Assembly: GCA_041738615.1 (NCBI GenBank)
Contig: JBGSPL010000002.1
Coordinates: 10,654-74,653 of the forward strand
Source of the DNA: Patescibacteria group bacterium
GTDB lineage: Bacteria; Patescibacteriota; CPR2; UBA1875; CAIMLA01
DNA: 64,000 nucleotides
Reading direction: 5' to 3'
Below the pieces are notes generated by a model. It was not told where the DNA came from, searched no databases, and saw only the letters and a program-made list of their open reading frames with translations. Shown piece after piece: positions 2,800 to 55,478 of the stretch; positions within the stretch are counted from its first letter, which is position 1, and every line of letters begins with the position of its first letter. A program made the translations under genes and the position numbers.

Positions 2800-2893
2800 A
2801 TATTTCTTTCTACATTACACTACATCAGTGACCATTTTAGCACAGAATCTCGTCTCGGTTAAGTACCCCCGGCGAGGGCACGCAAACCCTGTC

Positions 2894-2935: not shown

Positions 2936-3007
2936 CTATTTTTAGTACTATAATGAGCACAGATTTGACTAAATACGGGGTCTTGGGCGGCCCAAAAGAG
3001 GTGGAAA

Positions 3008-4378: not shown

Positions 4379-4650
4379 ACTGTGGATAAGCCTGTGCAGA
4401 ACCCCAGTATTCAGTGGAAAAGGTTGCGACAATAAAAAGTATAAATTATGCTCACTAAACATGGTCCAGAAAGTTAGAAACAGTTTTTGCAAGAACCTTA
4501 CCCCCTGTTGTACAGCCCCAAAACTGTAAGATGGTTACAAAGATAAGCACAAAAAGCGGCTTATACGCAGAATACACAGCCCCTATTACTACGATTACTA
4601 ATATATAAATAAGAAATTATATACACGAGCCTGTGGAAAGGGAAAACAAA
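4379..4650. promoter_or_regulatory. Candidate oriC (dnaA-dnaN intergenic): DnaA box plus AT-rich unwinding element
   Basis: Perfect TGTGGATAA at 4381-4389. A degenerate TGTGGAAAG lies at about 4614. An AT-rich stretch runs 4588-4620 (ttactaatatataaataagaaattatata). Confidence 0.5.
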
Positions 4651-5748: not shown

Positions 5749-5764
5749 GGGAATACAGCGGAAA

Positions 5765-10228: not shown

Positions 10229-11212
10229 TCACGGTTTTCCTCCGCCGAGCCTTAGAAGTTTACCGACATAGCTGTCTCCGGAAAAATAAACAACCCCACT
10301 ATCGCTTAGCCCAAATAGCTTGTAGTAATCGATATTATTAACCCCATAGTTTATTTGGTATGTTGTGCTGTCCTTAGCTAGATAAATATAGTCTTTCTTG
10401 TATTGTGAATAGATAAAGCAGTTTGCACCCGCGGCGAACTGGTCGGAGGGAGTAATATTAATTTTCGAGGGCGCGTGATTAGCAGGGAAAAGTCTGATTG
10501 AACTACTGTCGGCATATATTAGGCCACCGTTATCAAATATTCTGATGCGGCTTGACTCAGCAAACTTTTGTTCCAGTACCCTTATTGTTTTCAGCTTTTC
10601 ATCATATATCGTGACTTTCCCATTGATGTAATCTGCGAAACTTCCTCCAGCAGTCGAAAGTATGGGGGGATTGCTTGATAATTTAGTGCCAGTCTTTTTC
10701 CACTGGTCTCCTGTATGTTGGTATACGTAGTTAGTGCCCAGGCTTAGTATTTGGCTACCGGTTAGCCACGTGAATCCGGGCGCAGAACCTAAAAATATTG
10801 GGAGGTTGTCACCTAGATTATATGTCGCGTAAACCATTGTAGTTTCGGGGTCCTTGTAGTTACTATATCCCTCCAGTGCGGCTGGATCATTAACAATCTC
10901 TAGCAGCACCTTCTGCTTGTCTGGGTACCAGTATAAGTTAGAAATCTCTCCGTTAATAACTTGCTCGCTAATATCTTTCGCGGTCGTTTCTCCATTATCT
11001 ATCTTAGCGAGTGCAGTGTTGCGGAAAGTCATAAATGAGACATCATTGTCCGAGATATTTATGTGTTCCATCTGACCTTCAAGTGAGGTGAGATCTATCT
11101 CGGACGTTACGGTTTGGAGCGGGGCCGTTTTGGTAGAAACCAGATAAGTCATGATAATAACAACGATAATTAATATGGTACTGATAATTGGAATAATAAT
11201 CTTTTTGTTCAT
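10229..11212 (-). CDS. Membrane-anchored T4SS component (VirB8/TcpC-like by size and position; unverified)
   Basis: Single N-terminal TM plus a ~290 aa beta-rich ectodomain. Its ATGA start/stop overlaps the upstream gene. Confidence 0.3.
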   Translation of the reverse strand: MNKKIIIPIISTILIIVVIIMTYLVSTKTAPLQTVTSEIDLTSLEGQMEHINISDNDVSFMTFRNTALAKIDNGETTAKDISEQVINGEISNLYWYPDKQKVLLEIVNDPAALEGYSNYKDPETTMVYATYNLGDNLPIFLGSAPGFTWLTGSQILSLGTNYVYQHTGDQWKKTGTKLSSNPPILSTAGGSFADYINGKVTIYDEKLKTIRVLEQKFAESSRIRIFDNGGLIYADSSSIRLFPANHAPSKINITPSDQFAAGANCFIYSQYKKDYIYLAKDSTTYQINYGVNNIDYYKLFGLSDSGVVYFSGDSYVGKLLRLGGGKP

Positions 11213-11835
11213 CTGATTACAGTTCCTTCTATCTTGCCCATGACCTTTGACCCGCCATTCAAGCCGCTGCCGCTGTCTAGTTTAAGTTTGTGTTTTTTCC
11301 AGTAGGCTACCATCTCCGGGCAATAATCCACACAGGCAAGGTCAAGTCGGTTCGGTTTGGTTACAGTGGAAGCAAAGTGGTCCCCTACAGGGGTCGCTTC
11401 GCTGTTATTGTAGCCGGGAATAATTATCTTGGCTTGCTTTAGGACTTTTTTGCTATGGATCAGTGGTACAGGAATCTTGTTTATATCAACATGCCCGCCA
11501 GAATGATACTTACTATCTTGGGGGACAGCTATAACACCAGTTGAGACCTTTTTGCCGTTGTACTTACCGATATATCCCGTGGGGCTTGACGAGTTTAGCC
11601 AAACTTTAAGCATAGACCCGCCGCCGTTGTGACCGTTGATACCCCCTTTGCCAGGGTCATAAGTAGTTATCCAAAACTCAACGTCACCGGTAATGGCTGC
11701 AGTATCCGTTTTGTCTTCCACCTCTCCTCCCCCGCCCATTAACCCGACCGTTAGGGCAACGATAAATATTATAAAGACGCTTGAGGCAAAACAGCCCCCC
11801 AGCGTGCAGCCTACCTGTGATTTCCCTCCTGCCAC
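11209..11835 (-). CDS. 3D-domain (MltA/RlpA-like) putative lytic transglycosylase, membrane-anchored
   Basis: N-terminal TM. TTYDPGKGGINGHNGGG...GVIAVPQD...RLDLAC resembles 3D-domain motifs. Weak, by-eye match. Confidence 0.35.
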   Translation of the reverse strand: MAGGKSQVGCTLGGCFASSVFIIFIVALTVGLMGGGGEVEDKTDTAAITGDVEFWITTYDPGKGGINGHNGGGSMLKVWLNSSSPTGYIGKYNGKKVSTGVIAVPQDSKYHSGGHVDINKIPVPLIHSKKVLKQAKIIIPGYNNSEATPVGDHFASTVTKPNRLDLACVDYCPEMVAYWKKHKLKLDSGSGLNGGSKVMGKIEGTVIR

Positions 11836-11838
11836 GTG

Positions 11839-13650
11839 TTATTTTCTCCCGAGTTCGTTCAGCTGTTCTGGGTTTGTGGTAATTAGCAGATCTTCCTGGT
11901 AGCTTGGAGTGACCTTCAGGGCGACATGATTTAGTCCGGCGAAGAAGAGCCCCTCTCCTTTATCTGCGTTCAGAAGAAAGTACTTTTCAGCCGTGGTTAG
12001 ATTGAAGACCCTAGAGATGATATCCGCAGTGGCCGGGTGCTGCTTGAGCAGCAAGGTCAGTGACGAGTTGTTCACAATCGCCCTTCCGTAGCTAGAGCTG
12101 ATAAACTCGTCAACATCCTGGCTGATAGTCGTAAGGCCGAGGTAATATTTACGAGCCCGCTTCGCAATAGAGTAGATAAACTGGGCAGAGTCTTCATATT
12201 TCATCATCAGCCACGCTTCGTCCACGATGAGCATGCGGCGTTTGCGTTCGCTCTTCACGCGGTTCCAGATAAAGTTTAGGATAATGTGCATTGCGATAGG
12301 TCGGAGCTCATCCTCAAGGTCGCGGATAGAAAAGACGATAAACTGATTATCCATCTTGATGTTAGACTGTTGATTGAAGAGCCCCGAGAAGGTACCTGTG
12401 GTGTATTTCTGCATTCTGATAGCCATGGTCTCTCCGCCCTGGATACTGCCAAGAATCTTCTCTAGGTCCCCCATGGTCGGAGGCGTAAGGCCGTGAGTCG
12501 ACGGGTCACTAGTGATACCACGCGAGGCATATGATTCGATAAGCGCACGGTCTAGGATATTGTCTTCTACGGCTGTCAGAGTGCCACCAAGCATGATACG
12601 CACGAGCCCGTGGATAAGTATTACGTTGCTTCGCAAGATGTCTTCACCGTCCTTGGAGCCGCTTGCGGATGTAGGCAAGTCAAATGGGTTTATGCGGTAG
12701 TCGGAGTTCAGGGAGACATTCAGATAACTTCCGGCTACTGATTCGCAGAGCGCCTCGTACTCGTTTTCTGGGTCAATGATGATGACTTCGGTGCCAAACA
12801 TCATAGAGCGCACCGCCTCTAGCTTGATAGCGTAACTTTTACCTGCACCAGACATAGCCAGTACTACCATGTTGGCATTTTCTAGAGTAAAGCGGTCAAA
12901 TAGAACCAAGCTGTTGTTGTGCCTGTTGATGCCGTAGAGCACGCCTTCGTTATTTGAAAGCTCGGAGGAAACAAATGGGAAGCTAGTAGAGAGAGCACCA
13001 GTGTCGAAGTTACGCGAGATATCCATGACATCGTTTCCGAGTGGAAGCCCAGAGTCAAAACAGTCCTCTTGCTGCAGAGTGGCCCTCTTGGTATATACCA
13101 GCATTCCGCCCAGGTTCGTCTCGAGCATGTCGGTAAGCTGGTCCAGCTCCTTCAGCGTTTTTGCATAGAGGTTGATGTATAGAGACATCTTGAAGAACTT
13201 CGATTCGCCGCGTTGCAGTAAATCGCGTAGTTCCTCTACGTCCTGGTAGGCCGTCTGAAGCATAGGATCGCGCACGGCGCCTTTTTCTTGTTGCTCGGAG
13301 TAAGTAGACTGGATTTGTCCTACCTTTGTCCTTAGCTTGTCCATGATCTCCTTATTGTCTATCGGGTAGATAAACATCGAGAGATCGCCTTCGAAGCTTC
13401 CATTGATGATTGGTGAGAGCCACTCGGTATATAGATAGCGAGGATATGTGTAGACAAAGAATGATCGAGCGTAGTAGCCGCCTATTTCTATGTGGTCGAG
13501 CTCCACGTTGATGCTGGAGGGCGCGATGATGTCACGCAGAGTGGCCATACCTTCACGATAGACGCGCTCTGCCTCGAGCTTGCGGGCTTCGTTTGCCTCC
13601 CTGGCCTGCTTTTCCGCTGCAGACTTGGGGTCAAAGATATTATCAAGCAT
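11839..13650 (-). CDS. virB4: VirB4/TraE-family T4SS ATPase, C-terminal ATPase part
   Basis: Walker A LAMSGAGKSY and Walker B MLIVDEAWLM. The likely start is the ATG at 13648-13650 with an AAGGAG SD, overlapping the stop of the upstream ORF. Confidence 0.85.
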   Translation of the reverse strand: MLDNIFDPKSAAEKQAREANEARKLEAERVYREGMATLRDIIAPSSINVELDHIEIGGYYARSFFVYTYPRYLYTEWLSPIINGSFEGDLSMFIYPIDNKEIMDKLRTKVGQIQSTYSEQQEKGAVRDPMLQTAYQDVEELRDLLQRGESKFFKMSLYINLYAKTLKELDQLTDMLETNLGGMLVYTKRATLQQEDCFDSGLPLGNDVMDISRNFDTGALSTSFPFVSSELSNNEGVLYGINRHNNSLVLFDRFTLENANMVVLAMSGAGKSYAIKLEAVRSMMFGTEVIIIDPENEYEALCESVAGSYLNVSLNSDYRINPFDLPTSASGSKDGEDILRSNVILIHGLVRIMLGGTLTAVEDNILDRALIESYASRGITSDPSTHGLTPPTMGDLEKILGSIQGGETMAIRMQKYTTGTFSGLFNQQSNIKMDNQFIVFSIRDLEDELRPIAMHIILNFIWNRVKSERKRRMLIVDEAWLMMKYEDSAQFIYSIAKRARKYYLGLTTISQDVDEFISSSYGRAIVNNSSLTLLLKQHPATADIISRVFNLTTAEKYFLLNADKGEGLFFAGLNHVALKVTPSYQEDLLITTNPEQLNELGRK

Positions 13651-14380
13651 TTTCTTCTCCTTCGGGATTGGCTGGATTTGGACCGATACCACCAGAGATA
13701 ATCTCCGCTTCAGATCCAGAAATGTCAGTGAGTTTCTCAGAGCTAGAAATGTCAGGGTTGTATATGGAGTAGTACAGCTCTATCAGCTCCTCGGTGTTCA
13801 GCGCTGCACATCGAACCCCGATGCCAGTAAGCCCGTTTATAATATGGTCTACGCGTTCTAGGAGCTCCATCTTCTGCGTTCCAAAGTCAACCGTAGCCAC
13901 GCCTTCTTTCCCTGAGAAAAGATTCTTTACTACGTTCACTTTCTCCGTCCCAGTGGGGTAGAAAGGAACCACCAGAAAGAAGCGTTTCTCCATAATGTTG
14001 GAAAACTGGAGAAGTTCAGCGATAAAGTCGATGTACTGAGTGGTTTGCAATTTCAAAAGCTCATTCGTCTGTAGGCTCAGCTGTTTCTCCAGAGAGTTTA
14101 CATAGGCATCTAGGTGAAGCTGTCGTGATTTTACGTATACCTGTATTGGAAAGCCGAGGGAATTCAGGAAGCTCTGGTACGAGGAAACTATCGCGTTCTT
14201 TTCATCATCGCTCTTTAGGGCAAAGTTTACAGAGGAAACCAAAAGTACGGCCCTCAAAGAACCGTTGCGCATCACGACTACACCTTCTTTGATTTCCTTG
14301 ATCGGAATAAATTGCTGAGTAGACGGTGCCTTTACCTTCTTGTTGTACTTTGTGTCAGACATAACCCTCGCTTCGTACAC
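13643..14380 (-). CDS. VirB4 N-terminal domain encoded as a separate ORF
   Basis: FIPIKEIKEGVVVMRNGSLRAVLLVSSVNFALKSDDEKNAIVSSYQSFLNSL matches the N-terminus of Gram-positive VirB4 proteins (Tn916 Orf16/PrgJ type). Ends in low complexity. Confidence 0.65.
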   Translation of the reverse strand: MYEARVMSDTKYNKKVKAPSTQQFIPIKEIKEGVVVMRNGSLRAVLLVSSVNFALKSDDEKNAIVSSYQSFLNSLGFPIQVYVKSRQLHLDAYVNSLEKQLSLQTNELLKLQTTQYIDFIAELLQFSNIMEKRFFLVVPFYPTGTEKVNVVKNLFSGKEGVATVDFGTQKMELLERVDHIINGLTGIGVRCAALNTEELIELYYSIYNPDISSSEKLTDISGSEAEIISGGIGPNPANPEGEENA

Positions 14381-14446
14381 TCATTTTAGCATAACTAATG
14401 AATACGAAGAAACTCTTATTTAGAAGCATCTTTGTGCGGGGTGAGG

Positions 14447-15202
14447 TTACCCCCTGTCAAATTTCTTGACCTTAGCACTATCGAGCTTTTCCTCTAGTAC
14501 TCGCTGGTTTTCTTGAATTTTATTCAGTGTGGATTCTAGCTTCTTTTCGTCTGCGAGCGAGAGCTTCGAGTATTCAAAGTCGTCCTTGTTGGTTTTCTTT
14601 GTTGCTAGCGTACTTACTGGGGTTTCCTTCTTGTTTTTTTCGACATACTCTTTCGCCTGAGAGATGATAGAGTCCATCATCGGAGCGGCTTCCTCGGTTT
14701 TTGCTAGAACGTCCTTGACTGCCTCGGGCTCCTCTACTTCTTTCACTTCTACGTTAGTCTGCCGGTTCACTGTAGAGTCCATCCCTGCGGCACCACCTGA
14801 GTCCACGACCATGGCTAGCCTCTCGAGACCACTCTTGATCTCGTGAATACTTTTCTTTGCAGCCACGGTTTTTCTAGTATGCGGTGTCTCGTCATGGGTG
14901 GGGATTTCGGGATCGTCGTCCTTGCGCCAAATTCGTTCATGGGGCGCAAACAGGGATTTGACACCGGCCATGATAAAGGTCTCAAACGGACGGTCGTTTA
15001 TTTTCACAAAGGCAAATGCGATACCAACGCATGCTGTTACAAGTGCGAATGGGATAAAGAGGAATTGCAAAGGTCCAACGAAGGCATAGAACTCCAGGAG
15101 TCCCACGCCACCAGCGACCATGACGAACATGAACTGTCTGAGCGTAAGCCCGGCAATTACCTTGTCTTCGATGTCTATGTTTTGGGGGACTTTATATTGC
15201 AT
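14447..15202 (-). CDS. PrgI/VirB3-like small membrane protein with a charged C-terminal extension
   Basis: N-terminal IDIEDKVIAGLTLRQFMF plus a two-TM hairpin typifies the PrgI family. Lies directly upstream of VirB4. Confidence 0.5.
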   Translation of the reverse strand: MQYKVPQNIDIEDKVIAGLTLRQFMFVMVAGGVGLLEFYAFVGPLQFLFIPFALVTACVGIAFAFVKINDRPFETFIMAGVKSLFAPHERIWRKDDDPEIPTHDETPHTRKTVAAKKSIHEIKSGLERLAMVVDSGGAAGMDSTVNRQTNVEVKEVEEPEAVKDVLAKTEEAAPMMDSIISQAKEYVEKNKKETPVSTLATKKTNKDDFEYSKLSLADEKKLESTLNKIQENQRVLEEKLDSAKVKKFDRG

Positions 15203-15220
15203 GGAACCTTAATTTCTGAT

Positions 15221-18058
15221 TTATTTCTGTCGTTTCTTTCCTTCCATTATATCCTTGATCTCTGCTACGGTGTCAGGTCTAAAGTTAGTAGCTCCAATCT
15301 CTGGATCTGTGGCGGCTTTGTACAGCTTGGTCATACGAGGAGCACCTTTTTTCTTTATCAGTTCGCTAGCCTGGAGGGGCGAAATATTAGAAGTGAACTC
15401 ATTTGCCAAGCCAGCCATGAGAACGTCTTGATCGCCTCCTGCTATGCTCCTGGTATCTAGCCCCCCATTTTTAATCTGATCGTTTTGGGCATCAACTTGG
15501 CCTCTCAGTTCTTTGGTTATTGGTTTGGCATAGTTTAATAGTCCACCAATTTCTGCCCCAGTAGATGCTGAAAGATCTCCATCTATCATCTTCTTTGCGG
15601 CCTTCCTTCTGAAGTCGGCAGTGACAGAATCGTTTTGACTACCAAAAATAAGTTCCTTGTGACTCTTGATGCCAAGGTTCTTCATGGCGTCACTCTTACC
15701 GATAAACTCATCAAATAGTCCCTGTGCACCCTGCTCGTTACCGTCTTTGTCAAGTACTGTGTTACCACCAAAGCGCTTCAATTCATTGGCATCCATGTCG
15801 AGTAGCCCTCGGCGCATTAGTTCTGTTGCCGCAGCCTCACGCGTATATTGGTCATGCTGTTTTCCTGTAAAAGACATAAGTTTTTCTTTTGAGGTACTTT
15901 CGTCGCCCATACCTGCGGCAGCATGGTGGGCTGCCACAGTTGCTACGTGGAGGTTATTTGCGGCCATTTGCCCTCTATTGCCGGCGACTCCTGTTGTGGC
16001 CCACGTAGAACCCGGGATGTTACTATTCGCGAGCTTATCCTGGAAGCCGAGCAGGTGGGCCTTGTCCTCTGCGGCTTGGTTCGCTCTTCTGTTTTCGAAA
16101 AAGCCCTTACCCTTACCAAGCATACGATTGACGGAGTACTTCCCTCCCACGCGGGTAGCTGCCCAGCCGGCACCTTTCAGGGCATTCCCCCCCGTAGCGC
16201 CCCAGAGTTTCTTGCCTGCGCCACTCCAGGATTTCATAATGCTGCCACCCCATTGCATAGGGAGAGTGGCAGCCATATATAGAGCAGCCGCAAAGATGAT
16301 TAGTCCTACCAAAGCACCCGTTCTGCCGGAAGAGCTGAAATCAGCAAGGGCAGCAGACGAGGTGAGGTCACTTGCTCCTTCATAACCGGCGCTGCTAGCT
16401 ATTAAGCCTCCGAGAGCAATGATTGCCATAGCGATCGGCCCCATGAACATCCACTTGAAGAATTCACTCCACCACTGCTTATACATATTGGCGGTGAATG
16501 GCATGATGTTTAGGATAAAGGCAAGCGGAGCTACTACTAGCAGGAAGCTAAGCATGACCATACGTATCAGAAGAGTAAAGAGTAGTACGATGCCACATGC
16601 GATGACTCCGAGCAGAATCACGATTACCATAATCAGTATGCCAAGGTTTGCTATAATGTCCCCCGTAGAGGGTGCGGATATGCTGAAGGAAGACAAAGTC
16701 CCTAGAATGTCTATGCCCCCAGCGAGACCTACGGCCTGGGCTTGTATCGCAGCGGTAAAGTCAAAAAAAAAGACTACGATAATCCAGCTAGCGTATGCCA
16801 TGACTATAGAAATGATGATACGGGGGATCATACGAGTAACGCCGTACTGCTCTAGGTTAATTTGCAGTACATTGGCAAAGGCAATAATAACGAGTGCCAT
16901 CACTAGCAGGGATAGTGCTACGTTCCTTACGCTGATCCATGGCCCCCGCATAGTTACCTCTTTGGCATTCCCGATATCTGCACCGACCTTGCCAACAACA
17001 AGGTCTGCAGTCCCAAGAAGCAAGGCATTGATTTGTTTCATGACAAACCCCAGGGTCGTTTCGACGCCGCTCATCACCCACTTGATAGCGTTGGAGATAG
17101 CCTTGTCTAGGGGGGAGTCAGTTTCTTGGGAAACAGTTATCCGAAACCCTGTGTACTTTTCGTCGGTATCAGGCAGTTGCTTACCGCCAATTGGAGATTT
17201 TGCCTCAGTGGTATCATTCTTGTCGGAAATTGTTACTTTTGCGTAGCCACCCTTTACGTAACTCAAGTGAAATGTTATTTCCCCAGTCAGAGTTGCAGTA
17301 CAGGAGATTTGGTCAGCTCCTCCACCCTTCATTTCTTTAGAGACGCAGTCGGCATGTTCAGAATATTTAAACTTTATCGTATAGTCGTCCTCGTAGATGC
17401 CTTTACCGCTGTTCATGGTTGGGATATCAAAAGACTGGAAATAGTATTTTCCACCTTCTTCATATACTTTCTTATTGCCAGTCGAGATCTTACCGCTCGT
17501 TTTGCTCCAAAGCTCGATCGTCCTGTCCTTCATTTGGACGGCATTGTTTTCGTTTACGCTGTCGTCAGGGATAAGCTGTCCTGTTATTTTGCCCTTTGTA
17601 ATAAGTTTTACTGGGGCCGACGCAACATCTTCGGGGTCGGAGATGGTAATTTTAACTGGCCTGCCGCCATTGCGATCTGTGTAAGTATAGGTACCGGTCA
17701 AGGGGTCCTCTGGGTCATATGCAATTATGGACCCCCATTGAGGGTTGGTTTTTTGTTCAAACTGCTCCACTAGCTGTTCATTAACATAACCATTTGAGCC
17801 GGCATTTGCCCAACCCTGGCTTAGAGCAGCGAGGCGCGGGCTTGTTATCGACAAAAACTTCGTGCCGCCACTAGGGCAATCAATTTCTTCTAGGCTGACC
17901 CAAACACAAGTAAAGCTTGATGAGCCGTCTGGAATCGCTGGTTCTTGCCCGGTGTTGTAAGTTTGAGCATGAGTAAAAAGCGGAAATACTAACGCAAACA
18001 ACAAAAAAGCACATATTTCTTTATAAAATACTGGCTTATTTGAAAACAACTTAGGCAC
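15221..18058 (-). CDS. VirB6/PrgH/TcpH-like polytopic T4SS channel protein (945 aa)
   Basis: Signal peptide, ~350 aa ectodomain, then 6 or more TM helices and a Gly/Ala-rich cytoplasmic tail. Position matches the Gram-positive T4SS gene order. Confidence 0.55.
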   Translation of the reverse strand: MPKLFSNKPVFYKEICAFLLFALVFPLFTHAQTYNTGQEPAIPDGSSSFTCVWVSLEEIDCPSGGTKFLSITSPRLAALSQGWANAGSNGYVNEQLVEQFEQKTNPQWGSIIAYDPEDPLTGTYTYTDRNGGRPVKITISDPEDVASAPVKLITKGKITGQLIPDDSVNENNAVQMKDRTIELWSKTSGKISTGNKKVYEEGGKYYFQSFDIPTMNSGKGIYEDDYTIKFKYSEHADCVSKEMKGGGADQISCTATLTGEITFHLSYVKGGYAKVTISDKNDTTEAKSPIGGKQLPDTDEKYTGFRITVSQETDSPLDKAISNAIKWVMSGVETTLGFVMKQINALLLGTADLVVGKVGADIGNAKEVTMRGPWISVRNVALSLLVMALVIIAFANVLQINLEQYGVTRMIPRIIISIVMAYASWIIVVFFFDFTAAIQAQAVGLAGGIDILGTLSSFSISAPSTGDIIANLGILIMVIVILLGVIACGIVLLFTLLIRMVMLSFLLVVAPLAFILNIMPFTANMYKQWWSEFFKWMFMGPIAMAIIALGGLIASSAGYEGASDLTSSAALADFSSSGRTGALVGLIIFAAALYMAATLPMQWGGSIMKSWSGAGKKLWGATGGNALKGAGWAATRVGGKYSVNRMLGKGKGFFENRRANQAAEDKAHLLGFQDKLANSNIPGSTWATTGVAGNRGQMAANNLHVATVAAHHAAAGMGDESTSKEKLMSFTGKQHDQYTREAAATELMRRGLLDMDANELKRFGGNTVLDKDGNEQGAQGLFDEFIGKSDAMKNLGIKSHKELIFGSQNDSVTADFRRKAAKKMIDGDLSASTGAEIGGLLNYAKPITKELRGQVDAQNDQIKNGGLDTRSIAGGDQDVLMAGLANEFTSNISPLQASELIKKKGAPRMTKLYKAATDPEIGATNFRPDTVAEIKDIMEGKKRQK

Positions 18059-18120
18059 CCTCCTTTGTTGAATTTATTATGAAGTATTTGATGAGCTCTT
18101 GCAAGGCTCAAAACGCGAAA

Positions 18121-18150
18121 GCGGCCACCACGGGATTCCGTGGTGGCCGC
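18121..18150. terminator. Perfect 13-bp-stem hairpin downstream of the high-GC ORF
   Basis: GCGGCCACCACGG gatt CCGTGGTGGCCGC, followed on the minus strand by a T-rich tract. Confidence 0.55.
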
Positions 18151-18171
18151 TAGGTGATGCCCGCGAAGCTG

Positions 18172-18618
18172 TTACTCGAGTATCTCTACCCATTTACCAT
18201 CGCGCTTTACGAGTGCCGAGATGCCGTGAGTCCCGTCAGCGCCGCTCCACTTGTAGACAGCCGTCGGTTCGTTGTCGACGGTGACGGTAATGCAGCGGAC
18301 CATGTCATCGGCGACCTGCTCGGCGAAACCGCCGGTGTAGAAGAAGTCCTGGATGTCGGTATCGGTCGCAGGGCGGAATTCCACGATTTCTGCGGTTGTG
18401 AATTCATGGATCTTCTGCCGTGCAAAAGGCTCGGCTTCTCGCAACAAAGCCTGCCTGTCGAGGGACTTCTTCGCCTCAGCGGCTTTGTTAGCACCAGCCT
18501 CGATTGCCTGGTTTGCCGTTTCTCCCGCTGGCTTCACGACTTCCTTGTAAAGGTAGGTCCCGAAGCCAAGTATGACGACTATGCCCACGAGGTAGACGAA
18601 CCACTTCGGGATCGCCAT
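18172..18618 (-). CDS. Hypothetical TM-anchored protein encoded in a ~60% GC islet inside the T4SS locus
   Basis: Probable start MAIPKWFVYLVGIVVILGF (TM helix) followed by a soluble domain. The plus-strand ORF 18154..18708 is judged a high-GC antisense artefact. Confidence 0.4.
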   Translation of the reverse strand: MAIPKWFVYLVGIVVILGFGTYLYKEVVKPAGETANQAIEAGANKAAEAKKSLDRQALLREAEPFARQKIHEFTTAEIVEFRPATDTDIQDFFYTGGFAEQVADDMVRCITVTVDNEPTAVYKWSGADGTHGISALVKRDGKWVEILE

Positions 18619-18837
18619 GGTTCCTCTGTGCTGGCTACCCGCAGGGCTTCCGTTCAAGTCGACCATGACAGCCTCCCTTGGTTTTGGCCCCCGCGGGGGC
18701 GGTGCTAGCGGACAATATACTTCCACGGCTACACATTTGTGAGCGCGTTGTTGCCTTGCTTGCCGCTATAATACAACAAAATTGGCGATATGGCAATGGT
18801 TTCTGTGAAGCCGGCAAACAAATTGATAAAATGAAAA

Positions 18838-18857
18838 AGCCGGCGAGCGCCGGCTTT
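18838..18857. terminator. Hairpin terminator after pilin gene 1 (minus) / bidirectional
   Basis: AAGCCGGC gagc GCCGGCTT, with TTTTTCATTTT on the minus strand. Confidence 0.55.
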
Positions 18858-18873
18858 AAAAGAGCAGAAGTGT

Positions 18874-19227
18874 TTAGTTAGTGATTACGCCACCTATGTT
18901 CTGGCGGATAAATCCAACGATGACGAACGATAGTAGGATCACTACAAGCCCGACGACTGCGTAAAGGATGGTACTCTTTGCGGCTTCGGCACGCTTCTCG
19001 TTGCCTGACGCAGTGATGTACTGTAGGCCGCCTACAATCAGGAAGAGCACAGCTACTACAGCCGAGAATCCTAGTACCCATCCGACGATGTCAGCAAGTA
19101 CCTTCCCGATAGTCAGTGAGCTGTCGTCCACTGTTATGGGAGTGATTGAGCTTGGTGTTTCTGCAAAGGCAGGGGTTGCTGCGAGTAGAGCGAAAGCAGC
19201 CAGGCTGATTTGATTTAGTTTTTTCAT
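18874..19227 (-). CDS. VirB2/TrbC-like T4SS pilin paralog 1
   Basis: Signal peptide plus two TM helices with a conserved GGLQYITASGNEKRAEAAKSTILYAVVGL core shared by all five paralogs. Confidence 0.7.
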   Translation of the reverse strand: MKKLNQISLAAFALLAATPAFAETPSSITPITVDDSSLTIGKVLADIVGWVLGFSAVVAVLFLIVGGLQYITASGNEKRAEAAKSTILYAVVGLVVILLSFVIVGFIRQNIGGVITN

Positions 19228-19255
19228 GTTTCCTCCGTTGTTTATATATTAACTT

Positions 19256-19642
19256 TTAGGACGCTTTTGTTATTGGTATCATGGCTTGAACTACTAGCTG
19301 CACTATCACATATGCTAGTAGTATTACTATAAGTCCCAGCACTGCGTAGGTCAAGGTTTGCTTGGCAGATTCTGCCTGCTTCTCGTTTCCTGCTGCTGTG
19401 ATGTACTGGATGCCGCCCCAAATGATGAAAAGAACTGCAATGGTTCCAGCAAATCCTAGTATCCAGGTTGTAATGTTGCTGATTATTTTGGCAAGGTCGG
19501 ACGTAGTTCCAGTCCCATCTGAGCCACAGGGTGTGATCTCACCGGTTACCCTGTTATACCCACATGCCGCCTGTGTTACTACTGGAGTAAGTGAAGTGAC
19601 ACCCCCGAGGGCAAGTAGCGACAATTTAGAGTTTAGTGACAT
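19256..19642 (-). CDS. VirB2/TrbC-like pilin paralog 2
   Basis: Core GGIQYITAAGNEKQAESAKQTLTYAVLGL. Confidence 0.7.
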   Translation of the reverse strand: MSLNSKLSLLALGGVTSLTPVVTQAACGYNRVTGEITPCGSDGTGTTSDLAKIISNITTWILGFAGTIAVLFIIWGGIQYITAAGNEKQAESAKQTLTYAVLGLIVILLAYVIVQLVVQAMIPITKAS

Positions 19643-19662
19643 GGTTTGTACCTCCTTATTGT

Positions 19663-20007
19663 TTAGTATGGCATCGAGCCGGAGAATACTGCACCAACAA
19701 AATCCCCAGCTATAATGTTTAATATTACGGTTGATAGTAGAACTGCAATTAATCCAATAATAGCATAAGTGAGGGTTTTTTTTGCATCCTCTAAACGTTT
19801 GGGGTTACCGGCAGAAGTCACTAGCTTCACGCCACCAATAACGATAAAGAGCACCGCTATAGCGCCGGCGATTCCCAGCAGCCAGGTACGAACAAATTTT
19901 AGAAATCCATCTAGGCTAGTGCCTTTGTATGTGTCTAGTTTGGCCGCGAAAGAGTAGCTGGGCATGGCTGCAACCGCAATATATAGCATTAGACTTAGCT
20001 TCTTCAT
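19663..20007 (-). CDS. VirB2/TrbC-like pilin paralog 3
   Basis: Core GGVKLVTSAGNPKRLEDAKKTLTYAIIGL. Confidence 0.7.
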   Translation of the reverse strand: MKKLSLMLYIAVAAMPSYSFAAKLDTYKGTSLDGFLKFVRTWLLGIAGAIAVLFIVIGGVKLVTSAGNPKRLEDAKKTLTYAIIGLIAVLLSTVILNIIAGDFVGAVFSGSMPY

Positions 20008-21182
20008 TATAATATCCCTCCACCAATTACCGATGCAAACAGTGAGACGATGAAGTACGAGAGGATAGTGATGAGTAATCCGATAATAGCTGCAGTTAGT
20101 ATCCCCTTTGCCTTGGTCGCCGTCTGTTCGTTTCCGTTAGATCCCATATAGGTAATCCCGCCCAAGATTATCATGATTGTGAATAGTGTTCCTACGATGG
20201 GTAGGAGGACATTATTCATAACATTCTTCACTACCTGTAATACCTCTTTCAGCTCTGTAATAGGTTTGTCGCAGGGTACGCCTGCCAGTATACCGTTGGT
20301 ATAGTAGGTTCCATCGCCTACGCCATCGCCGCACTTGGTCTCTGCATAGTCTGCAGTTTGCGTTTTTGCAGTAGCACTAGCAGAGGCCGGTCCGGAGTCG
20401 TCTTTGGGTGTGGCACCGCTACTACCGCCACTGTCACCACCATCACCACTGTCATCTTTGCCCGCATCAAGAACCTCACTGTCTTTTGGAGGAGTGTCGC
20501 CCTTTTTGCAGGATACTAGCTCTGGATTACTGAGGGTTCCAGTGTATTTGCAGCTATAGGTCGCACCAATGTCGGTGGACTTGGGGTCCCAAGCATAGTT
20601 TGAGTTAGAAAGACTTCTTCCCAGTAAAAGTGAACTTCCAGATGAAGGATTTACCCTATAAACCGTGGTCCCGGTGGAGGAATACTTCTCTAGCTTACCT
20701 TTGACTGGTCCCTTAACCTCTGGGATTGGGCAGACTGCGCAAGTACCCCCTCCCGATTTACTCCAGCTGTACACAACAAGATATCGTAAGCTCAGCTTGA
20801 AGGTTGGATTGCCACAGATAGTCTGATTAGTATATTGTTTTTGGCCTGTAGTACGAGCGTTGCCACCCAAGGACCCATTGGCTTCATAGGTAATCGTCCA
20901 TCCCACATCATTGATCTCAGGACTGTTACAGCGGTAGATTTTTTTTGTAAAGATAAAATACGACCCCTCTGTACGAGAATATATCGCACCATAGGATACG
21001 TTGCTCTTCGTTATCTTTACGACAACGTCACTTGAATTGTAACTATTTACAGGCACTTTAACAGTAACAGTGGTTTGTGTCATGACGGCGGCATTGCTTG
21101 AGCTTGGAGCCAAAATAAAACAAAACGCAATTGCAAAGTACAGCAAGATACGGTTTAGTTTTGCGTACTTTAATTCACCCAT
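20007..21182 (-). CDS. Pilin-fusion protein: ~300 aa Cys-containing beta-rich N-terminal domain, Gly/Ser/Asp linker, C-terminal VirB2-like pilin module
   Basis: C-terminus GGITYMGSNGNEQTATKAKGILTAAIIGL matches the pilin core. The N-terminal domain has a signal peptide and several Cys. Confidence 0.6.
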   Translation of the reverse strand: MGELKYAKLNRILLYFAIAFCFILAPSSSNAAVMTQTTVTVKVPVNSYNSSDVVVKITKSNVSYGAIYSRTEGSYFIFTKKIYRCNSPEINDVGWTITYEANGSLGGNARTTGQKQYTNQTICGNPTFKLSLRYLVVYSWSKSGGGTCAVCPIPEVKGPVKGKLEKYSSTGTTVYRVNPSSGSSLLLGRSLSNSNYAWDPKSTDIGATYSCKYTGTLSNPELVSCKKGDTPPKDSEVLDAGKDDSGDGGDSGGSSGATPKDDSGPASASATAKTQTADYAETKCGDGVGDGTYYTNGILAGVPCDKPITELKEVLQVVKNVMNNVLLPIVGTLFTIMIILGGITYMGSNGNEQTATKAKGILTAAIIGLLITILSYFIVSLFASVIGGGIL

Positions 21183-27557: not shown

Positions 27558-28040
27558 TTACAGTCTGAACCACCGCATCAAAGTGTCTGCAATGTTCTCT
27601 GTGCGATTGCCTTCTTCGGGGATGTATTTCCCTATTGCTGCGCGAATTTTTACCGGATCTACATCACCAAGCATAATAGTAAGTTGTGGCAAATACTTCT
27701 TTTGAAAGATTATGTTCAACGAAGGGTGGTTCCGGTGTAGCAAGAACCAAAAGGAATACATTTCGTTATAGGGGTAGAAGCGAGTATCTATGTAAAGCCC
27801 AAGCTGTGAGAATCGGTAGGTTTTCTCGACAGGACTTTGCTGTTGGTACCAATACATAAAGCCGATGAGGACGACTATTATGGCAGCGCCATACCAATCT
27901 CCTGTGTACAGCGAGTATCCGATAACGCCCAAGAAAAATAAGCCGATTACTGCGTAGTATGCCGTAGAACGGGTATATTCTGGGTACTCTTTTGCCTTCC
28001 AGGCTACGAGTACGGTTTCTTTAGTGTCTTCCTCCGCCAT
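27558..28040 (-). CDS. Two-TM membrane protein with a PH-like C-terminal domain (hypothetical)
   Basis: Start MAEEDTKETV; two hydrophobic helices. The longer annotated ORF overlaps the rubrerythrin gene. Confidence 0.4.
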   Translation of the reverse strand: MAEEDTKETVLVAWKAKEYPEYTRSTAYYAVIGLFFLGVIGYSLYTGDWYGAAIIVVLIGFMYWYQQQSPVEKTYRFSQLGLYIDTRFYPYNEMYSFWFLLHRNHPSLNIIFQKKYLPQLTIMLGDVDPVKIRAAIGKYIPEEGNRTENIADTLMRWFRL

Positions 28041-28119
28041 GACTTCATTATACAAAGTATATTTGGAAAAGTAAAAGTTATAAAATGACCCACCTAGTGG
28101 TGGGTCATTCGGACTTTGT

Positions 28120-28701
28120 TTAGTAATTCTCGGAGAGGAGCTGATAGAAAGCTTGTGGGTGCTCACAGACTGGGCAAACTTTTGGTGGCTCGGTTCCTTC
28201 GTGGACGTATCCACATTCACGGCAGCACCACCACACTTTTTCGCCGCGCTTAAAGATCATGCCACTTTCCACAAGAGAAAGTAGTTTGGTGTATCTTTCC
28301 TCATGATGTGCCTCTGCCTCGGCAATATCGGTGAGTCGGTTGGAAATGATAGTGAGACCTTCCTCTTTGGCGACCTTAGCAAACTCTGGGTACATCTGGC
28401 TAGTCTCGAAGTGTTCACCGGCAATTGATGCCTTCAGGTTCTCTAGGGTCGTGTCCCAGACGTTTGGGACCTCTGTAGGAATTTGGATCGCAGGATAGTT
28501 CACGTCATTATTCTTGAGCTCCTGGATATGGCCCATGAGCATCTTGGCGTGAGTTTTTTCCTGGTTAGCAGTTTCCTCAAACACGCCAGCAATCTGTTCG
28601 TAACCTTCTTTGCGAGCAACCGATGCGTATATGGTGTAGCGATTGCGGGCTTGGCTTTCGCCAGCAAAAGCTTTGGCTAGATTCTCGATAGTTTTCTGCA
28701 T
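28120..28701 (-). CDS. rbr: Rubrerythrin
   Basis: Ferritin-like diiron domain with E...E..H motifs, plus a C-terminal rubredoxin-like CxxC...CxxC. Confidence 0.9.
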   Translation of the reverse strand: MQKTIENLAKAFAGESQARNRYTIYASVARKEGYEQIAGVFEETANQEKTHAKMLMGHIQELKNNDVNYPAIQIPTEVPNVWDTTLENLKASIAGEHFETSQMYPEFAKVAKEEGLTIISNRLTDIAEAEAHHEERYTKLLSLVESGMIFKRGEKVWWCCRECGYVHEGTEPPKVCPVCEHPQAFYQLLSENY

Positions 28702-28710: not shown

Positions 28711-29139
28711 TTATGCTTTAATGATTTGTTCGCGCCTGTTCTCAGCGTCAGGGGTACCACTTAGGTTATCCCAAAGGCCGTGTACGTTACAGTAAATCGT
28801 CACCAGGTAATCTTCACCCTCCGGGAGTCTAAAAGTAGCTCTAGGGGCCTCTCCTGCGCTCAGGAACTTACGAAATGAGGTTGTGGCGGTGGCAAGTTCT
28901 ATCCACTCGATGTAATGCTCAGGCAACATTGGATGTTCCACAGTTCCCACGACTACTTCTACTTTACTGTCGAGAGCTGTAACCACCGGCACATGTTTCT
29001 CGTGACCCTCAGGGCCGTTGCTTGGTACGAGCAATACCATTGGTTCACCGCAGCATTTGAGTGTTCCGTGGCCTGCATCAAGCACGGAAACTATGTTTCC
29101 GCATTCCTCGCACTTGTAATAGTTTTTTCGTAATGCCAT
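28711..29139 (-). CDS. dfx: Desulfoferrodoxin-type superoxide reductase (2Fe-SOR)
   Basis: N-terminal desulforedoxin CxxC...CC. C-terminal SOR domain with His ligands and YCNVHGLW. Confidence 0.8.
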   Translation of the reverse strand: MALRKNYYKCEECGNIVSVLDAGHGTLKCCGEPMVLLVPSNGPEGHEKHVPVVTALDSKVEVVVGTVEHPMLPEHYIEWIELATATTSFRKFLSAGEAPRATFRLPEGEDYLVTIYCNVHGLWDNLSGTPDAENRREQIIKA

Positions 29140-29171: not shown

Positions 29172-29200
29172 AAGGGAGAAGAGGGTTGCCCCTCTTCTCC
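29172..29200. terminator. 12-bp perfect hairpin between the heliorhodopsin and SOR genes
   Basis: GGGAGAAGAGGG gttg CCCCTCTTCTCCC; weak T tract on the minus strand. Could be a terminator/attenuator or a processing site. Confidence 0.4.
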
Positions 29201-29220
29201 CTGTGATCAGATGTGGCTAA

Positions 29221-29982
29221 TTATCGTAGAGTTCCACCCCATACCTGCCAAGCAAGAAGCGCCTTGGCAACTAGTGAGAAGGTGATGTAAGCGTACTCAC
29301 CGTAGAGGTAATCCTGCCATTTACCAATCTTTTTGTATTGAAGAATCATATTTACCGAGAAGACGTTGAAGGCGATAAAAAGGCTCCAAAAGATTGCGTA
29401 GACAAAGTTAGGGACAGCATCTCCACCGGCGGCAAGGGCATTATAGAAATATAGTCCCATCACTACCCATGGCATCGCCCCGGCAAAACAACCGAAAAGA
29501 TACGCAGTCCAGTCGGTCTTCTTGGTGGTTTGGTTGTGGACTTCCATCATCCAGCCAAAGAGAATCATGCAGGCATTTAGTGAGAAGATCAGAATTAAGG
29601 TAGATAAATCGTAGATACCACAAAGTATGGCAATCACCACGACCATCATCGAAGATGTGATAGCATACTCTGCCCAGCGAAATAGATTGATGCCCTTCTG
29701 AATCTGCTCTTCGTACTTTTTGCGCCATACGAAAGCATTACCGAGTAGAAATAGCCCAGAAAGCAGTAGAAATGAAGCCACGATAGGACCGAGGCGCCAC
29801 TGCGCAAAATTCGCGACTAGGGTGGTTGGCATTCCTGGAATATTACTGTTCTTGCCTAGGTAGCTAGTAGTAATTTGTGCGGCGCTGTCGTTTGAAATCG
29901 CCCACATTAGCACACCCTGTGCAAACAGTAGTACTCCGACTACAGAATTGTAGATCCAGAGATTATTTAGTTTCTTTTCCAT
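29221..29982 (-). CDS. Heliorhodopsin (seven-TM retinal protein, inverted topology)
   Basis: As recalled (not searched), extensive identity to heliorhodopsin 48C12. Examples: NLFRWAEYAITSSMMVVVIAILCGI, NACMILFGW, FGCFAGAMPW. The Schiff-base lysine sits in YAYITFSLVAKALLAWQVWGGTL. Confidence 0.85.
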   Translation of the reverse strand: MEKKLNNLWIYNSVVGVLLFAQGVLMWAISNDSAAQITTSYLGKNSNIPGMPTTLVANFAQWRLGPIVASFLLLSGLFLLGNAFVWRKKYEEQIQKGINLFRWAEYAITSSMMVVVIAILCGIYDLSTLILIFSLNACMILFGWMMEVHNQTTKKTDWTAYLFGCFAGAMPWVVMGLYFYNALAAGGDAVPNFVYAIFWSLFIAFNVFSVNMILQYKKIGKWQDYLYGEYAYITFSLVAKALLAWQVWGGTLR

Positions 29983-30056
29983 ATTTCCCCCCTTTCGATA
30001 TGTGTATAATACACCGATTTAAATAACAAAAAAATACCCGTTTCAGGTATTCTTTA

Positions 30057-30146
30057 TGGCGGAAGGGGTGGGATTCGAACCCACGATACCATTGCTGGTA
30101 TGACGGTTTTCAAGACCGTTCGATTCAACCGCTCTCGCACCCTTCC
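30057..30146 (-). tRNA. tRNA-Ser (TGA)
   Basis: Reverse complement folds as a class II tRNA with anticodon loop CTTGAAA; near-identical to tRNA-Ser(CGA) at 27435. Confidence 0.85.
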
Positions 30147-30275
30147 ACGTCGCAACACGTTATGGGTTTCGCAAGTCGGCTTTGCCGATTGCTGCACCTC
30201 TGTACTGTTGCTCCTTTCCCCTTAAATCCTTCGGATTTCGGGGGCCCCACGACGAAGTAATTCGATAGAAATATA

Positions 30276-30368
30276 TGGCGGAGAGAGAGGGATTCGAACC
30301 CTCGCGCCAGGTTGCCCCGGCCTACAGGTTTAGCAAACCCGCCCCTTCAGCCACTTGGGTACCTCTCC
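30276..30368 (-). tRNA. tRNA-Ser (GCT)
   Basis: Reverse complement GGAGAGGTACCCAAGTGGCTGAAGGGGCGGGTTTGCTAAACCTG...GGTTCGAATCCCTCTCTCTCCGCCA. Confidence 0.8.
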
Positions 30369-30451: not shown

Positions 30452-31291
30452 GTGTTGCCATATAATGACGGCATGAGCCAACCCAAGGTAGACCAGATTA
30501 ATAAGAGAGTTAACCGAGGATATATTTCTTTCGCGTTAGCTTTTGCAACTATGTCGGTCTTGATTGTGTTATCTGGTGTGCGAATATCTTCTTTTTACTT
30601 ACATAAGGCCGAAAAGTCAGCAAGGTCAGAAGAACATCTGCTCTATCTGTCTCTTTCCGATGCTTTCTGGAGAACGGAAGACTCTCAGTACAAGCTGGGA
30701 CAGTATTATCTAAAGCAGAAGGATTACGTCCGCGCAGCTGTGTATTTCTCGGGAAATAACGCTATATCAGCAAAAAATGCTTATGTGGAAGCAAAATATT
30801 ACGTTTCCGATTATCAGTCCGTGGTGAGTAGATATATGGGCGAGCCAACTCTATATGCTGAACCCAGCAGAATTTTGGTCGCCAAGAGTTACTTGAAGCT
30901 CGGAGACCTCAACGAGGCGAGAAAGTTACTTTCCCAGCTACCAGAGGCAGGGCTAAGTATTGGCGAGAAGTCGATTTTGGCTGTGGAAGATGAGGAAATG
31001 AATTATCAGCTCGTATATAAAGCACTAAATACAGAGGGTTTTCCACATGCAGCTACTGAGCTTCTCCGGGAAGGCGAAACGAAGAAGCATCTCGATAGAG
31101 ATGCTCTTCTCAGCCTTGCGCAAGCAGAAATATACGAAAGCCACAAGGATCGTGCATACGAAACACTCATTCAGGCGCTCGCCAAAGATGCCTATTATCC
31201 ACAGACTTATCGACAACTAATTACTACCGGTGGAGAACTTGGGAAAGACGTTTCGGTATACAAAAACCGCCTAGCCGAGCTTGAGTGGTAG
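30452..31291 (+). CDS. Membrane-anchored TPR-like repeat protein (hypothetical)
   Basis: N-terminal TM, then helical repeats rich in Y/L/A. Confidence 0.35.
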   Translation: MLPYNDGMSQPKVDQINKRVNRGYISFALAFATMSVLIVLSGVRISSFYLHKAEKSARSEEHLLYLSLSDAFWRTEDSQYKLGQYYLKQKDYVRAAVYFSGNNAISAKNAYVEAKYYVSDYQSVVSRYMGEPTLYAEPSRILVAKSYLKLGDLNEARKLLSQLPEAGLSIGEKSILAVEDEEMNYQLVYKALNTEGFPHAATELLREGETKKHLDRDALLSLAQAEIYESHKDRAYETLIQALAKDAYYPQTYRQLITTGGELGKDVSVYKNRLAELEW

Positions 31292-45985: not shown

Positions 45986-46585
45986 ATGCAGATTACTGAC
46001 GAACAGATTGATAGTGCTCAAAGTATAGCTGAGATCGCAGAGCTGGTTAGTAATTGCCAGAGATGTTCTTTATACGAGACGAAAACCATGGATGTGGTTG
46101 GCGTAGGATCAGATGCCGCTGAGATATTCTTTATAGGCGAAGCTCCTGGTAAGAAGGAGGATCTCGAAGGAGAGCCCTTTATCGGAGCGGCTGGTAAGTT
46201 TTTGAACGAGCTTCTATCTACCATAGGATTGGAGCGAAAAGACATATATATCGCAAACGTGCTGAAGCACCGCCCACCGAACAACCGTGATCCCAAACCT
46301 AGCGAGGCAGAGATATGCTGGCCATATCTGAGACGTCAAATAGAGCTCATCAACCCTACGTTGATTATCTTTCTTGGACGCCATGCAATGAACAGATTCT
46401 TTCCGGAGCTTAAAATTTCGGAGGCCCATGGGAATGAATTTACCAAGCAAATGTGGGGCAGAGACCAGACTTTCCTTGCGCTCTACCACCCAGCAGCAGC
46501 AATGTACAACGGCTCACTGCGAGAGACGCTAAAGGGCGACTTCGCGCGGATACCAGAAATAATCAAAACTATTAAAACCAACTAA
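45986..46585 (+). CDS. Uracil-DNA glycosylase, family 4/5
   Basis: GEAPG motif and the HPAAAM/HPS-like C-terminal motif. Confidence 0.75.
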   Translation: MQITDEQIDSAQSIAEIAELVSNCQRCSLYETKTMDVVGVGSDAAEIFFIGEAPGKKEDLEGEPFIGAAGKFLNELLSTIGLERKDIYIANVLKHRPPNNRDPKPSEAEICWPYLRRQIELINPTLIIFLGRHAMNRFFPELKISEAHGNEFTKQMWGRDQTFLALYHPAAAMYNGSLRETLKGDFARIPEIIKTIKTN

Positions 46586-55477: not shown

Positions 55478-55478
55478 A

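Follow-up and report, generated by a model that had tools for sequence, protein, structure and literature searches.

A heliorhodopsin that lacks both conserved histidines, encoded beside superoxide reductase and rubrerythrin genes in a Patescibacteria genome

Heliorhodopsins (HeRs) of prokaryotes typically carry one histidine in each of the first two transmembrane helices (TM1 and TM2), though these residues do not strictly define the family, and a long beta-hairpin loop between the two helices is a hallmark of HeRs. The physiological role of these proteins is largely unresolved in the field and few partners have been shown, e.g., OcHeR modulates an ABC transporter through arginine residues of its cytoplasmic loops, and glutamine synthetase and photolyase are cited as further partners (PMC11109279). 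Published hypotheses tie HeRs to the mitigation of oxidative stress (Bulzu et al. 2021, PMC8612252; Chiriac et al. 2022, PMC9166423), and a survey of 1,326 genomes of the candidate phyla radiation (CPR), which recovered 98 HeRs (80 from Saccharimonadia) with a TM7 motif that most often read SLVAK, suggested such a role specifically for reduced genomes (Chiriac et al. 2022, PMC9166423). Patescibacteria were also included in the HeR neighborhood analyses of Bulzu et al. (PMC8612252) and Chazan et al. (bioRxiv 10.1101/2021.02.16.431466). Loss of both histidines has been studied in HULAa30F3 from a Dehalococcoidia fosmid (H25L/H81L), which forms a pigment at 562 nm with little M intermediate, and an H23F/H82F mutant of TaHeR behaves like it (bioRxiv 10.1101/2021.02.16.431466). 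Here, we describe a stretch of 64,000 nucleotides (contig JBGSPL010000002.1; "the window") that encodes a HeR with leucine in place of both histidines, directly upstream of genes for a superoxide reductase (SOR; desulfoferrodoxin, dfx) and a rubrerythrin (rbr).

The gene and the codons on which the following comparison turns are:

29221..29982, minus strand: HeR coding sequence, 253 aa, with seven TM helices and a first extracellular loop that forms a beta-hairpin (residues 34-63), recognized through its open reading frame (ORF), Pfam, NCBIfam, phmmer against the PDB, AlphaFold2 (AF2) and Foldseek
29263..29265, minus strand: codon of K240, the predicted retinal Schiff-base lysine in SLVAK, aligned with 48C12 K241 and TaHeR K238
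29668..29670, minus strand: codon of E105, the predicted Schiff-base counterion in FRWAEY, aligned with 48C12 E107 by phmmer and MAFFT
29746..29748, minus strand: codon of L79, which phmmer and MAFFT align with the conserved TM2 histidine (48C12 H80, TaHeR H82)
29926..29928, minus strand: codon of L19, which phmmer and MAFFT align with the conserved TM1 histidine (48C12 H23, TaHeR H23)

The original prediction, made from the DNA letters alone, had read this ORF as a HeR with exactly these boundaries (ATG to TAA, 253 aa), and every line of evidence that we followed agrees with that identity. The Pfam profile Heliorhodopsin (PF18761) matches over all of its positions (1-242 of 242; E=2.3e-87, 292.8 bits against a cut-off of 26.7) and is the only Pfam match of the ORF, while the NCBIfam equivalog NF038020 'HeR' scores 293.1 bits against a cut-off of 100. 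A phmmer search of all PDB chains returned heliorhodopsins only, with E-values of 1e-58 for TaHeR (6IS6), 6-7e-53 for 48C12 (6UH3/6SU3) and 5e-38 for the eukaryotic 9VFC. The profile of type-1 microbial rhodopsins (Bac_rhodopsin, PF01036) gave no match to the ORF, and its TM7 reads SxxxK, not DxxxK. The product is a genuine, intact heliorhodopsin.

Its likeness to 48C12 had been overstated as "long identical stretches": the two proteins are 43% identical (105/246), and the longest shared runs are MILFGW (6 residues), SLVAK (5), and LAWQ and LQYK (4 each). TaHeR is marginally closer with 45% identity and a longest run of nine residues (LQYKKIGKW). The TM7 pattern that had been proposed as common to both, SLVAKxLLAWQ, likewise needs loosening to SLVAKxxLAWQ, given SLVAKALLAWQ here and SLVAKSALAWQ in 48C12. 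The predicted Schiff-base lysine is confirmed by the alignment to 6SU3 and 6IS6 suggested with it, in which K240 falls on the Schiff-base lysine, both with phmmer and in a separate MAFFT alignment. What the prediction had missed was the loss of both histidines, the SOR/rubrerythrin pair downstream and the already published HeRs of Saccharimonadia (PMC9166423); its reading of the gene as a HeR stands regardless.

The chromophore site is preserved nearly throughout. Both K240 and E105 are invariant across 31 relatives, and S236 of the SxxxK motif corresponds to S237 of 48C12. Among the residues compared, i.e., those lining the Schiff base, the polar cavity and the region of E149 in 48C12 (with roles taken from bioRxiv 10.1101/2025.11.27.691015), MAFFT aligned as identical S75, N99, F101, R102, W103, E105, Y106, S110, N136, E147, W172, L201, F202, F205, Y225, E229, I233, S236, A239, K240 and W245. 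The polar network around the counterion (E105, S75, S110, N99, R102, N136, E147 and E229) is thus all kept, while M212 takes the place of 48C12 Q213, a position at which TaHeR also has methionine. By alignment the protein further carries the proposed motif of a carotenoid site with lateral fenestration, defined in a preprint as aromatic residues at 162 and 206, small ones at 166 and 210, G169 and N207 in 48C12 numbering (bioRxiv 10.1101/2025.11.27.691015). The corresponding residues Y161, C165, G168, F205, N206 and S209 occupy positions 162, 166, 169, 206, 207 and 210 of 48C12, which is a match of the motif only.

An AF2 model built from the 31 relatives (mean pLDDT 84.6, pTM 0.79) folds into seven helices with strands at residues 34-43 and 53-63, between TM1 and TM2. 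In a Foldseek comparison with the PDB, TaHeR 6IS6 came first (TM 0.91, rmsd 1.7 Å) and 48C12 (6SU3) reached TM 0.86, with type-1 rhodopsins far behind (TM 0.52-0.65, 9-15% identity). If the N-terminus is placed inside, 11 lysine and arginine residues lie on cytoplasmic segments versus three outside; by the positive-inside rule, this fits the inverted topology with a cytoplasmic N-terminus.

The most distinctive trait of the protein is leucine at both histidine positions. We surveyed its 121 closest database homologues, of which 115 were full-length at the N-terminus, together with 80 more distant HeRs from GTDB genomes. Leucine at position 19 combined with a TM2 segment free of histidine was found in 114 of the 115 full-length close relatives, and both histidines are present in 75 of the 80 distant HeRs. 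The two positions always change together, as either His/His or Leu/no-His, and a neighbor-joining tree placed all 118 LL sequences (i.e., those of the Leu/no-His type) inside one clade of 124, with sampling biased towards relatives of the query. Since the change is fixed in nearly all close relatives and also present in the characterized HULAa30F3, the double leucine in these alignments marks a HeR subfamily, and loss of the histidines does not exclude membership in the family. For the LL HeR described here, we would predict a red-shifted absorption near 560 nm with little M intermediate, because HULAa30F3, the sole characterized HeR with a double His-to-Leu change, behaves in this way; the assignment thereby yields a prediction that can be tested. 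Three metagenome-assembled genomes of Candidatus Saccharibacteria (L016, L017 and L023) encode HeRs of ca. 50-52% identity that retain both histidines, and by these sequences at least two lineages of HeR, H/H and L/L, exist in the phylum.

The host is a member of the Patescibacteria and, as judged from its sequence relatives, probably of Saccharibacteria type; the window is part of an NCBI contig of 114,149 bp. The closest named RecA homologues, with 76-80% identity, belong to 'Patescibacteria group bacterium', and a HeR at 65% identity is named 'Candidatus Saccharibacteria bacterium'; a scan of GTDB genomes found one close relative only. Pfam annotation, which covered about 60 ORFs of the window and on which the statements about gene content below are based, revealed CPR-like content, namely yidC-dnaA-dnaN-recF, a type IV secretion cluster, PilB, FemAB, a Mur ligase, aminoacyl-tRNA synthetases and DNA repair genes; genes of biosynthetic pathways were not seen among these ORFs. 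Close relatives have longest contigs of 507, 721 and 848 kb, which fits a genome of roughly 1 Mb or less of the CPR/Saccharibacteria type. The claim of a reduced genome in the original prediction is thus supported indirectly, by the names of RecA and HeR homologues, the gene content of the window and the 0.51-0.85 Mb contigs of relatives. The window also encodes peptidoglycan genes such as FemAB and the Mur ligase. According to Bulzu et al. (2021, PMC8612252), a monoderm host would be expected for a prokaryotic HeR.

Within this genome, the HeR gene is under strong purifying selection. Compared to the nearest relative (GCA_964501135.1; locus L086), dN is 0.037 and dS 1.39, which gives a dN/dS of 0.026 as the single usable ratio, with dS saturated in every other comparison. 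The HeR and the valyl-tRNA synthetase ValS are each 94% identical between these two genomes. In the more distant locus L002, HeR is at 86% identity the best-conserved gene of a shared syntenic block, ahead of Rbr (80%), the Mur ligase (72%), FemAB (68%), TsaD (66%), a DHH protein (60%), PilB (59%) and ValS (47%). We considered recent horizontal transfer as an explanation for the gap between HeR at 86% and ValS at 47% and hold it to be less likely. The whole block is syntenic and the identities of RecA and HeR run roughly parallel across relatives (RecA/HeR 95/94, 92/83, 90/85, 88/79, 81/70 and 78/82%, with contigs paired by their lengths), so that vertical descent under strong constraint is the preferred reading of these sequences. 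The earlier argument that retention in a small genome implies importance is supported by the low dN/dS and by the top rank of HeR in the block shared with L002.

Genes for retinal or carotenoid synthesis (blh, crt) and for type-1 rhodopsins were not found among the ORFs scanned in the 64 kb. Rhodopsin-bearing Saccharibacteria without blh have been described before, for which uptake of retinal from Actinobacteria hosts was proposed, and HeR is known to bind external retinal rapidly (Jaffe et al. 2022, PMC9296517). Given a host of the Patescibacteria/Saccharibacteria episymbiont type and a window devoid of such synthesis genes, we infer that the organism most likely takes up its retinal from hosts or its surroundings. 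Very strong selection on a HeR in a genome of probably less than about 1 Mb, with no apparent retinal synthesis in the part seen, is a clean natural case: such retention makes a case for an important non-energetic light response and points to chromophore scavenging from hosts.

We therefore favor, and hold to be probable rather than certain, that this is a functional HeR which binds retinal at K240 and serves as a non-pumping, slow light sensor with scavenged chromophore and a stress-type output. All-trans retinal would be bound at K240 as a protonated Schiff base that is balanced by E105. Photoisomerization would lead to a long-lived state with little deprotonation of the Schiff base and without ion transport, and the protein would act as a slow-cycling sensor like characterized prokaryotic HeRs. 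This photo-intermediate may alter the positively charged and highly conserved cytoplasmic loops (WRKKYEEQIQKG, HNQTTKK and QYKKIGKW), which in turn may modulate a partner protein, with a light-triggered or photo-oxidative stress response as the most plausible output. The original prediction had stated that HeRs have no proven ion-pumping activity; this holds for prokaryotic HeRs, but not for some HeRs of giant viruses, for which proton transport has been reported (Hososhima 2022, in PMC11109279).

The surroundings of the gene bear on what this output might be. The following features flank the HeR gene, given in the order of transcription:

30057..30368, minus strand: two tRNA-Ser genes (tga, gct) 5' of HeR, a landmark common to L002 and L086
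30029..30055, minus strand: terminator-like hairpin with T-run after tRNA-Ser(tga), which parts the tRNA genes from HeR
29983..30028, minus strand: 5' region of HeR, read from the sequence as an extended -10-like GGTGTATTATA and a Shine-Dalgarno-like AAAGGGGGG right after the terminator
29173..29202, minus strand: 13-bp GC-rich hairpin (GGGAGAAGAGGGG-CAAC-CCCUCUUCUCCC) between the HeR stop and the dfx start
28711..29139, minus strand: 2Fe SOR (desulfoferrodoxin, dfx), 142 aa, 81 bp downstream of HeR (Pfam PF06397 and PF01880)
28120..28701, minus strand: rubrerythrin (rbr), 193 aa, 9 nt after dfx (Pfam PF02915 and PF21349)
28083..28110, minus strand: strong intrinsic-terminator-like hairpin that closes the dfx-rbr unit, with a 12-bp stem and a T-rich tail

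The promoter-like and ribosome-binding-site (RBS)-like signals upstream of HeR are putative; L086 has the same GGTGATATTATA...GAAAGGGGG arrangement. The hairpin between HeR and dfx folds with -33.4 kcal/mol (z=-4.55), though it ranks as weak in a terminator listing; in L086 the hairpin recurs, with a G-C pair replaced by A-U in a compensatory manner, and again has a tail rich in U. It is probably a terminator or an RNA-stabilizing element. From this layout, HeR looks like its own transcription unit beside a dfx-rbr operon. A strict HeR-dfx-rbr operon is disfavored by the conserved 13-bp hairpin together with a separate -10/RBS-like sequence before dfx.

We searched 81 HeR loci by tblastn with Dfx, Rbr, the membrane protein encoded further downstream, the TPR protein, ValS, an S51 peptidase and PilB. 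Dfx was found only in L001, which is a second copy of this same sequence, and Rbr only in L001 and L002; a family-wide link of SOR and rubrerythrin to HeR is rejected, as these neighbors are absent elsewhere among the 81 loci. Direct HeR-dfx-rbr adjacency is seen only in this sequence (window/L001) and in L086, and in L002 an rbr gene lies 3.5 kb downstream of HeR, with two opposite-strand genes between them and no dfx. HeR relatives at 74-87% identity sit instead between AspRS and SMC genes (L082, L084 and L087) or between FtsA and AlaRS genes (L085 and L088). Small ORFs downstream of HeR in L084, L085 and L087 were considered as a hidden partner and dismissed, as the sole likeness among them is a weak one between those of L084 and L087 (26% identity, E ~1e-7). 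Families of known partners (glutamine synthetase, photolyase, ABC transporter, MerR, TerC, SDR, DUF2177 and DUF2238, as listed in PMC11109279) were found neither in the window nor in eight related loci.

Some further observations concern the genes around HeR. In L084 (JGI 3300033565, a 721-kb contig), whose HeR is 83% identical, a gene for a pyrimidine-dimer DNA glycosylase (PF03013 Pyr_excise; 5657-5986, same strand) ends 15 bp before the HeR gene begins, which recalls the pairing of HeR and photolyase but occurs in one of eight loci. Directly downstream of rbr, a predicted membrane protein of ca. 160 aa (MAEEDTKETVLVAWKAKEYPEY...; 27558-28040, minus strand) has its own promoter-like site; it has no Pfam match and an 89% identical homologue in L086 (9887-10423). 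A membrane-anchored TPR-repeat protein is encoded between ValS and tRNA-Ser (30452-31291, plus strand; 6722-7651 in L086) and is only 45% identical between the two genomes, compared with 94% for ValS, FemAB and HeR, which indicates unusually fast evolution. The tRNA-Ser(gct)/tRNA-Ser(tga) pair itself is inverted in strand and order in L086 (7616-7876) relative to the window and L002, i.e., by a small local inversion.

Several points weigh against a light sensor with scavenged retinal and a stress-type output. Retinal binding, color, photocycle and lack of transport are all deduced from homology, the expected spectrum and photocycle draw on one homologue, HULAa30F3, which was compared by description and not by sequence, and the search for retinal genes spans 64 kb of the genome, so that a pathway may be encoded elsewhere. 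Regarding the output, the window HeR is flanked by tRNA-Ser, dfx, rbr, the TPR protein and ValS, while a two-component system, glutamine synthetase, photolyase, DegV and DUF2177 are all missing from the ORFs scanned in the window. The eight related loci represent three unrelated housekeeping contexts (ValS/tRNA, AspRS/SMC and FtsA/AlaRS), the small ORFs downstream of HeR do not form one family and none of them matches genes of the window, and in 79 more distant loci neither Dfx nor Rbr is encoded within 10 kb of HeR. Even the adjacency of dfx-rbr carries little weight, because oxidative-stress and translation genes flank rhodopsin pumps as often as HeRs (Chazan et al.). The pair fits the hypothesis of photo-oxidative stress, but as a separate transcription unit and not as a conserved neighbor.

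Taking the neighborhood at face value, HeR, SOR and rubrerythrin could form a dedicated module of photo-oxidative defense, in which light-activated HeR binds or switches on the two enzymes or their expression and thereby allows an oxygen-sensitive fermenter to clear superoxide and peroxide made by light. All three genes share one strand and span no more than 1.9 kb, this block is retained in L086, the rubrerythrin near HeR in syntenic L002 is second only to HeR in conservation, and published hypotheses connect HeR with oxidative stress (PMC8612252, PMC9166423 and Chazan et al.); the literature that we found pairs no HeR with rubrerythrin or SOR, so the pairing would be new. We nevertheless consider a dedicated module unlikely in view of the conserved strong hairpin and apparently separate -10/RBS between HeR and dfx, the lack of dfx and the two intervening opposite-strand genes in L002, the absence of SOR and Rbr near HeR from five relatives at 74-87% identity as well as from the 79 distant loci, and the similar stress genes next to proton pumps. 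A wider version, in which LL HeRs would be a distinct subfamily that retinal-auxotrophic Saccharibacteria load with host retinal to sense photo-oxidative danger, coupled here to SOR-rubrerythrin, is in our view decidedly unlikely; if true, the coupling of an LL sensor to these enzymes would be the first HeR tied to anaerobe-type detoxification of reactive oxygen species. Doing without any conserved neighbor would be compatible with stand-alone activity, e.g., a light-dependent enzymatic role in the remodeling or repair of membrane lipids, or a light-independent structural role, instead of signaling to a partner. Lipid remodeling has been proposed from DegV and DUF2177 neighbors, HeRs can bind fatty acids (Chazan et al.), and this protein still has the conserved polar cavity around E147 and E229; with DegV and DUF2177 genes in neither the window nor the eight related loci, and no enzymatic activity of a HeR demonstrated in the literature found, such a role seems unlikely to us.

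An energetic function would benefit an organism with minimal energy metabolism, either by proton transport as in HeRs of giant viruses or as a "two-antenna" harvester that recruits exogenous xanthophylls through the lateral fenestration. Viral HeRs able to transport protons (cited in PMC11109279) and the carotenoid-binding motif present by sequence would speak for it. The protein is, however, closest to TaHeR and 48C12 (43-45% identity), which according to the literature have no demonstrated ion transport, the ion-transporting HeRs of the preprint fall in a group without the carotenoid motif that is present here, and the proposal of an antenna stems from docking in a preprint and comes with no demonstrated output of energy, all of which makes an energetic role very unlikely. 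That the gene is a decaying remnant or a chance ORF, for which only the loss of the two histidines could be cited, is effectively refuted: the match to the family profile is full-length, dN/dS is 0.026, HeR is the most conserved protein of the syntenic block, and the double His-to-Leu change is fixed in >110 relatives and compatible with a pigment in HULAa30F3.

Other parts of the window deserve brief mention. It probably spans the chromosomal origin region, with a cluster of replication-origin type at 1948-6844 (yidC on the minus strand, then dnaA, dnaN and recF on the plus strand). A cluster resembling a type IV secretion system (T4SS) on the minus strand (10229-21182) comprises a VirB4/TraG-type ATPase (11839-13692), a PrgI-family protein (14447-15202), a 945-aa ORF without Pfam match (15221-18058) and a row of four T4SS-pilin/TrbC paralogues (18874-21182), of which one has 391 aa. 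Genes of the damage response are dense at 45986-46585 and 54932-60320, including uracil-DNA glycosylase, DJ-1/PfpI, Fpg and LexA-RecA-RecX (57976-60320), a set that stands out in a genome of reduced size and agrees with a way of life under oxidative or photo-damage. The ORF of ribosomal protein S20 (57285-57851, minus strand) encodes 188 aa with the S20 domain only at residues 68-147, which reflects either an over-extended start or N- and C-terminal extensions.

Compared with described systems, the HeR of the window finds its best match in both sequence and structure in TaHeR of a Thermoplasmatales archaeon (6IS6/7U55/7CLJ), with which it shares the SLVAK lysine motif, the Glu counterion, Met at the position of 48C12 213, the loops HNQTT and LQYKKIGKW, and the C-terminal GTLR. 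TaHeR differs by its archaeal origin, by keeping H23 and H82 (L19 and L79 here), by a shorter extracellular loop between TM5 and TM6, and in overall sequence with only 45% identity. Against 48C12 (6SU3/6SU4/6UH3), the founding member of the family, the functional residues correspond one by one (K240=K241, E105=E107, S236=S237, S75=S76, S110=S112, N99=N101, R102=R104, E147=E149 and E229=E230), while H23 and H80 are replaced by Leu and Q213 by Met, the hairpin of the first extracellular loop is three residues longer, and one residue is deleted at the border of TM2 and the first intracellular loop. The partnered HeRs (OcHeR with the OmrDE ABC transporter, and those of glutamine synthetase and photolyase) belong to the same family, have positively charged cytoplasmic loops and work by the mechanism that we propose here, but their operon organization, with the partner co-transcribed across a short gap, is not seen at this locus. 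The SacR rhodopsins of Saccharibacteria (PMC9296517) share the host phylum and the presumed dependence on external retinal, yet as type-1 DTS proton pumps they belong to another family.

HULAa30F3 is the only characterized HeR that we found to have leucine in place of both the TM1 and the TM2 histidine, though it comes from a different phylum (Chloroflexi) and was likened to ours by description rather than sequence. The HeRs of Chiriac et al. (PMC9166423) are of the same host group and family, and the parts of that work available to us describe neither a double loss of histidine nor an SOR/rubrerythrin neighbor. Earlier publications already cover HeRs of Saccharimonadia, the SLVAK motif and a possible role in oxidative stress, and the histidine-less state has been characterized once; the locus confirms and slightly refines existing knowledge and opens no new question. 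Its additions to these systems are modest, i.e., the placement of this Saccharibacteria-type lineage in the LL subfamily and a lineage-specific SOR-rubrerythrin neighbor of HeR in two close genomes.

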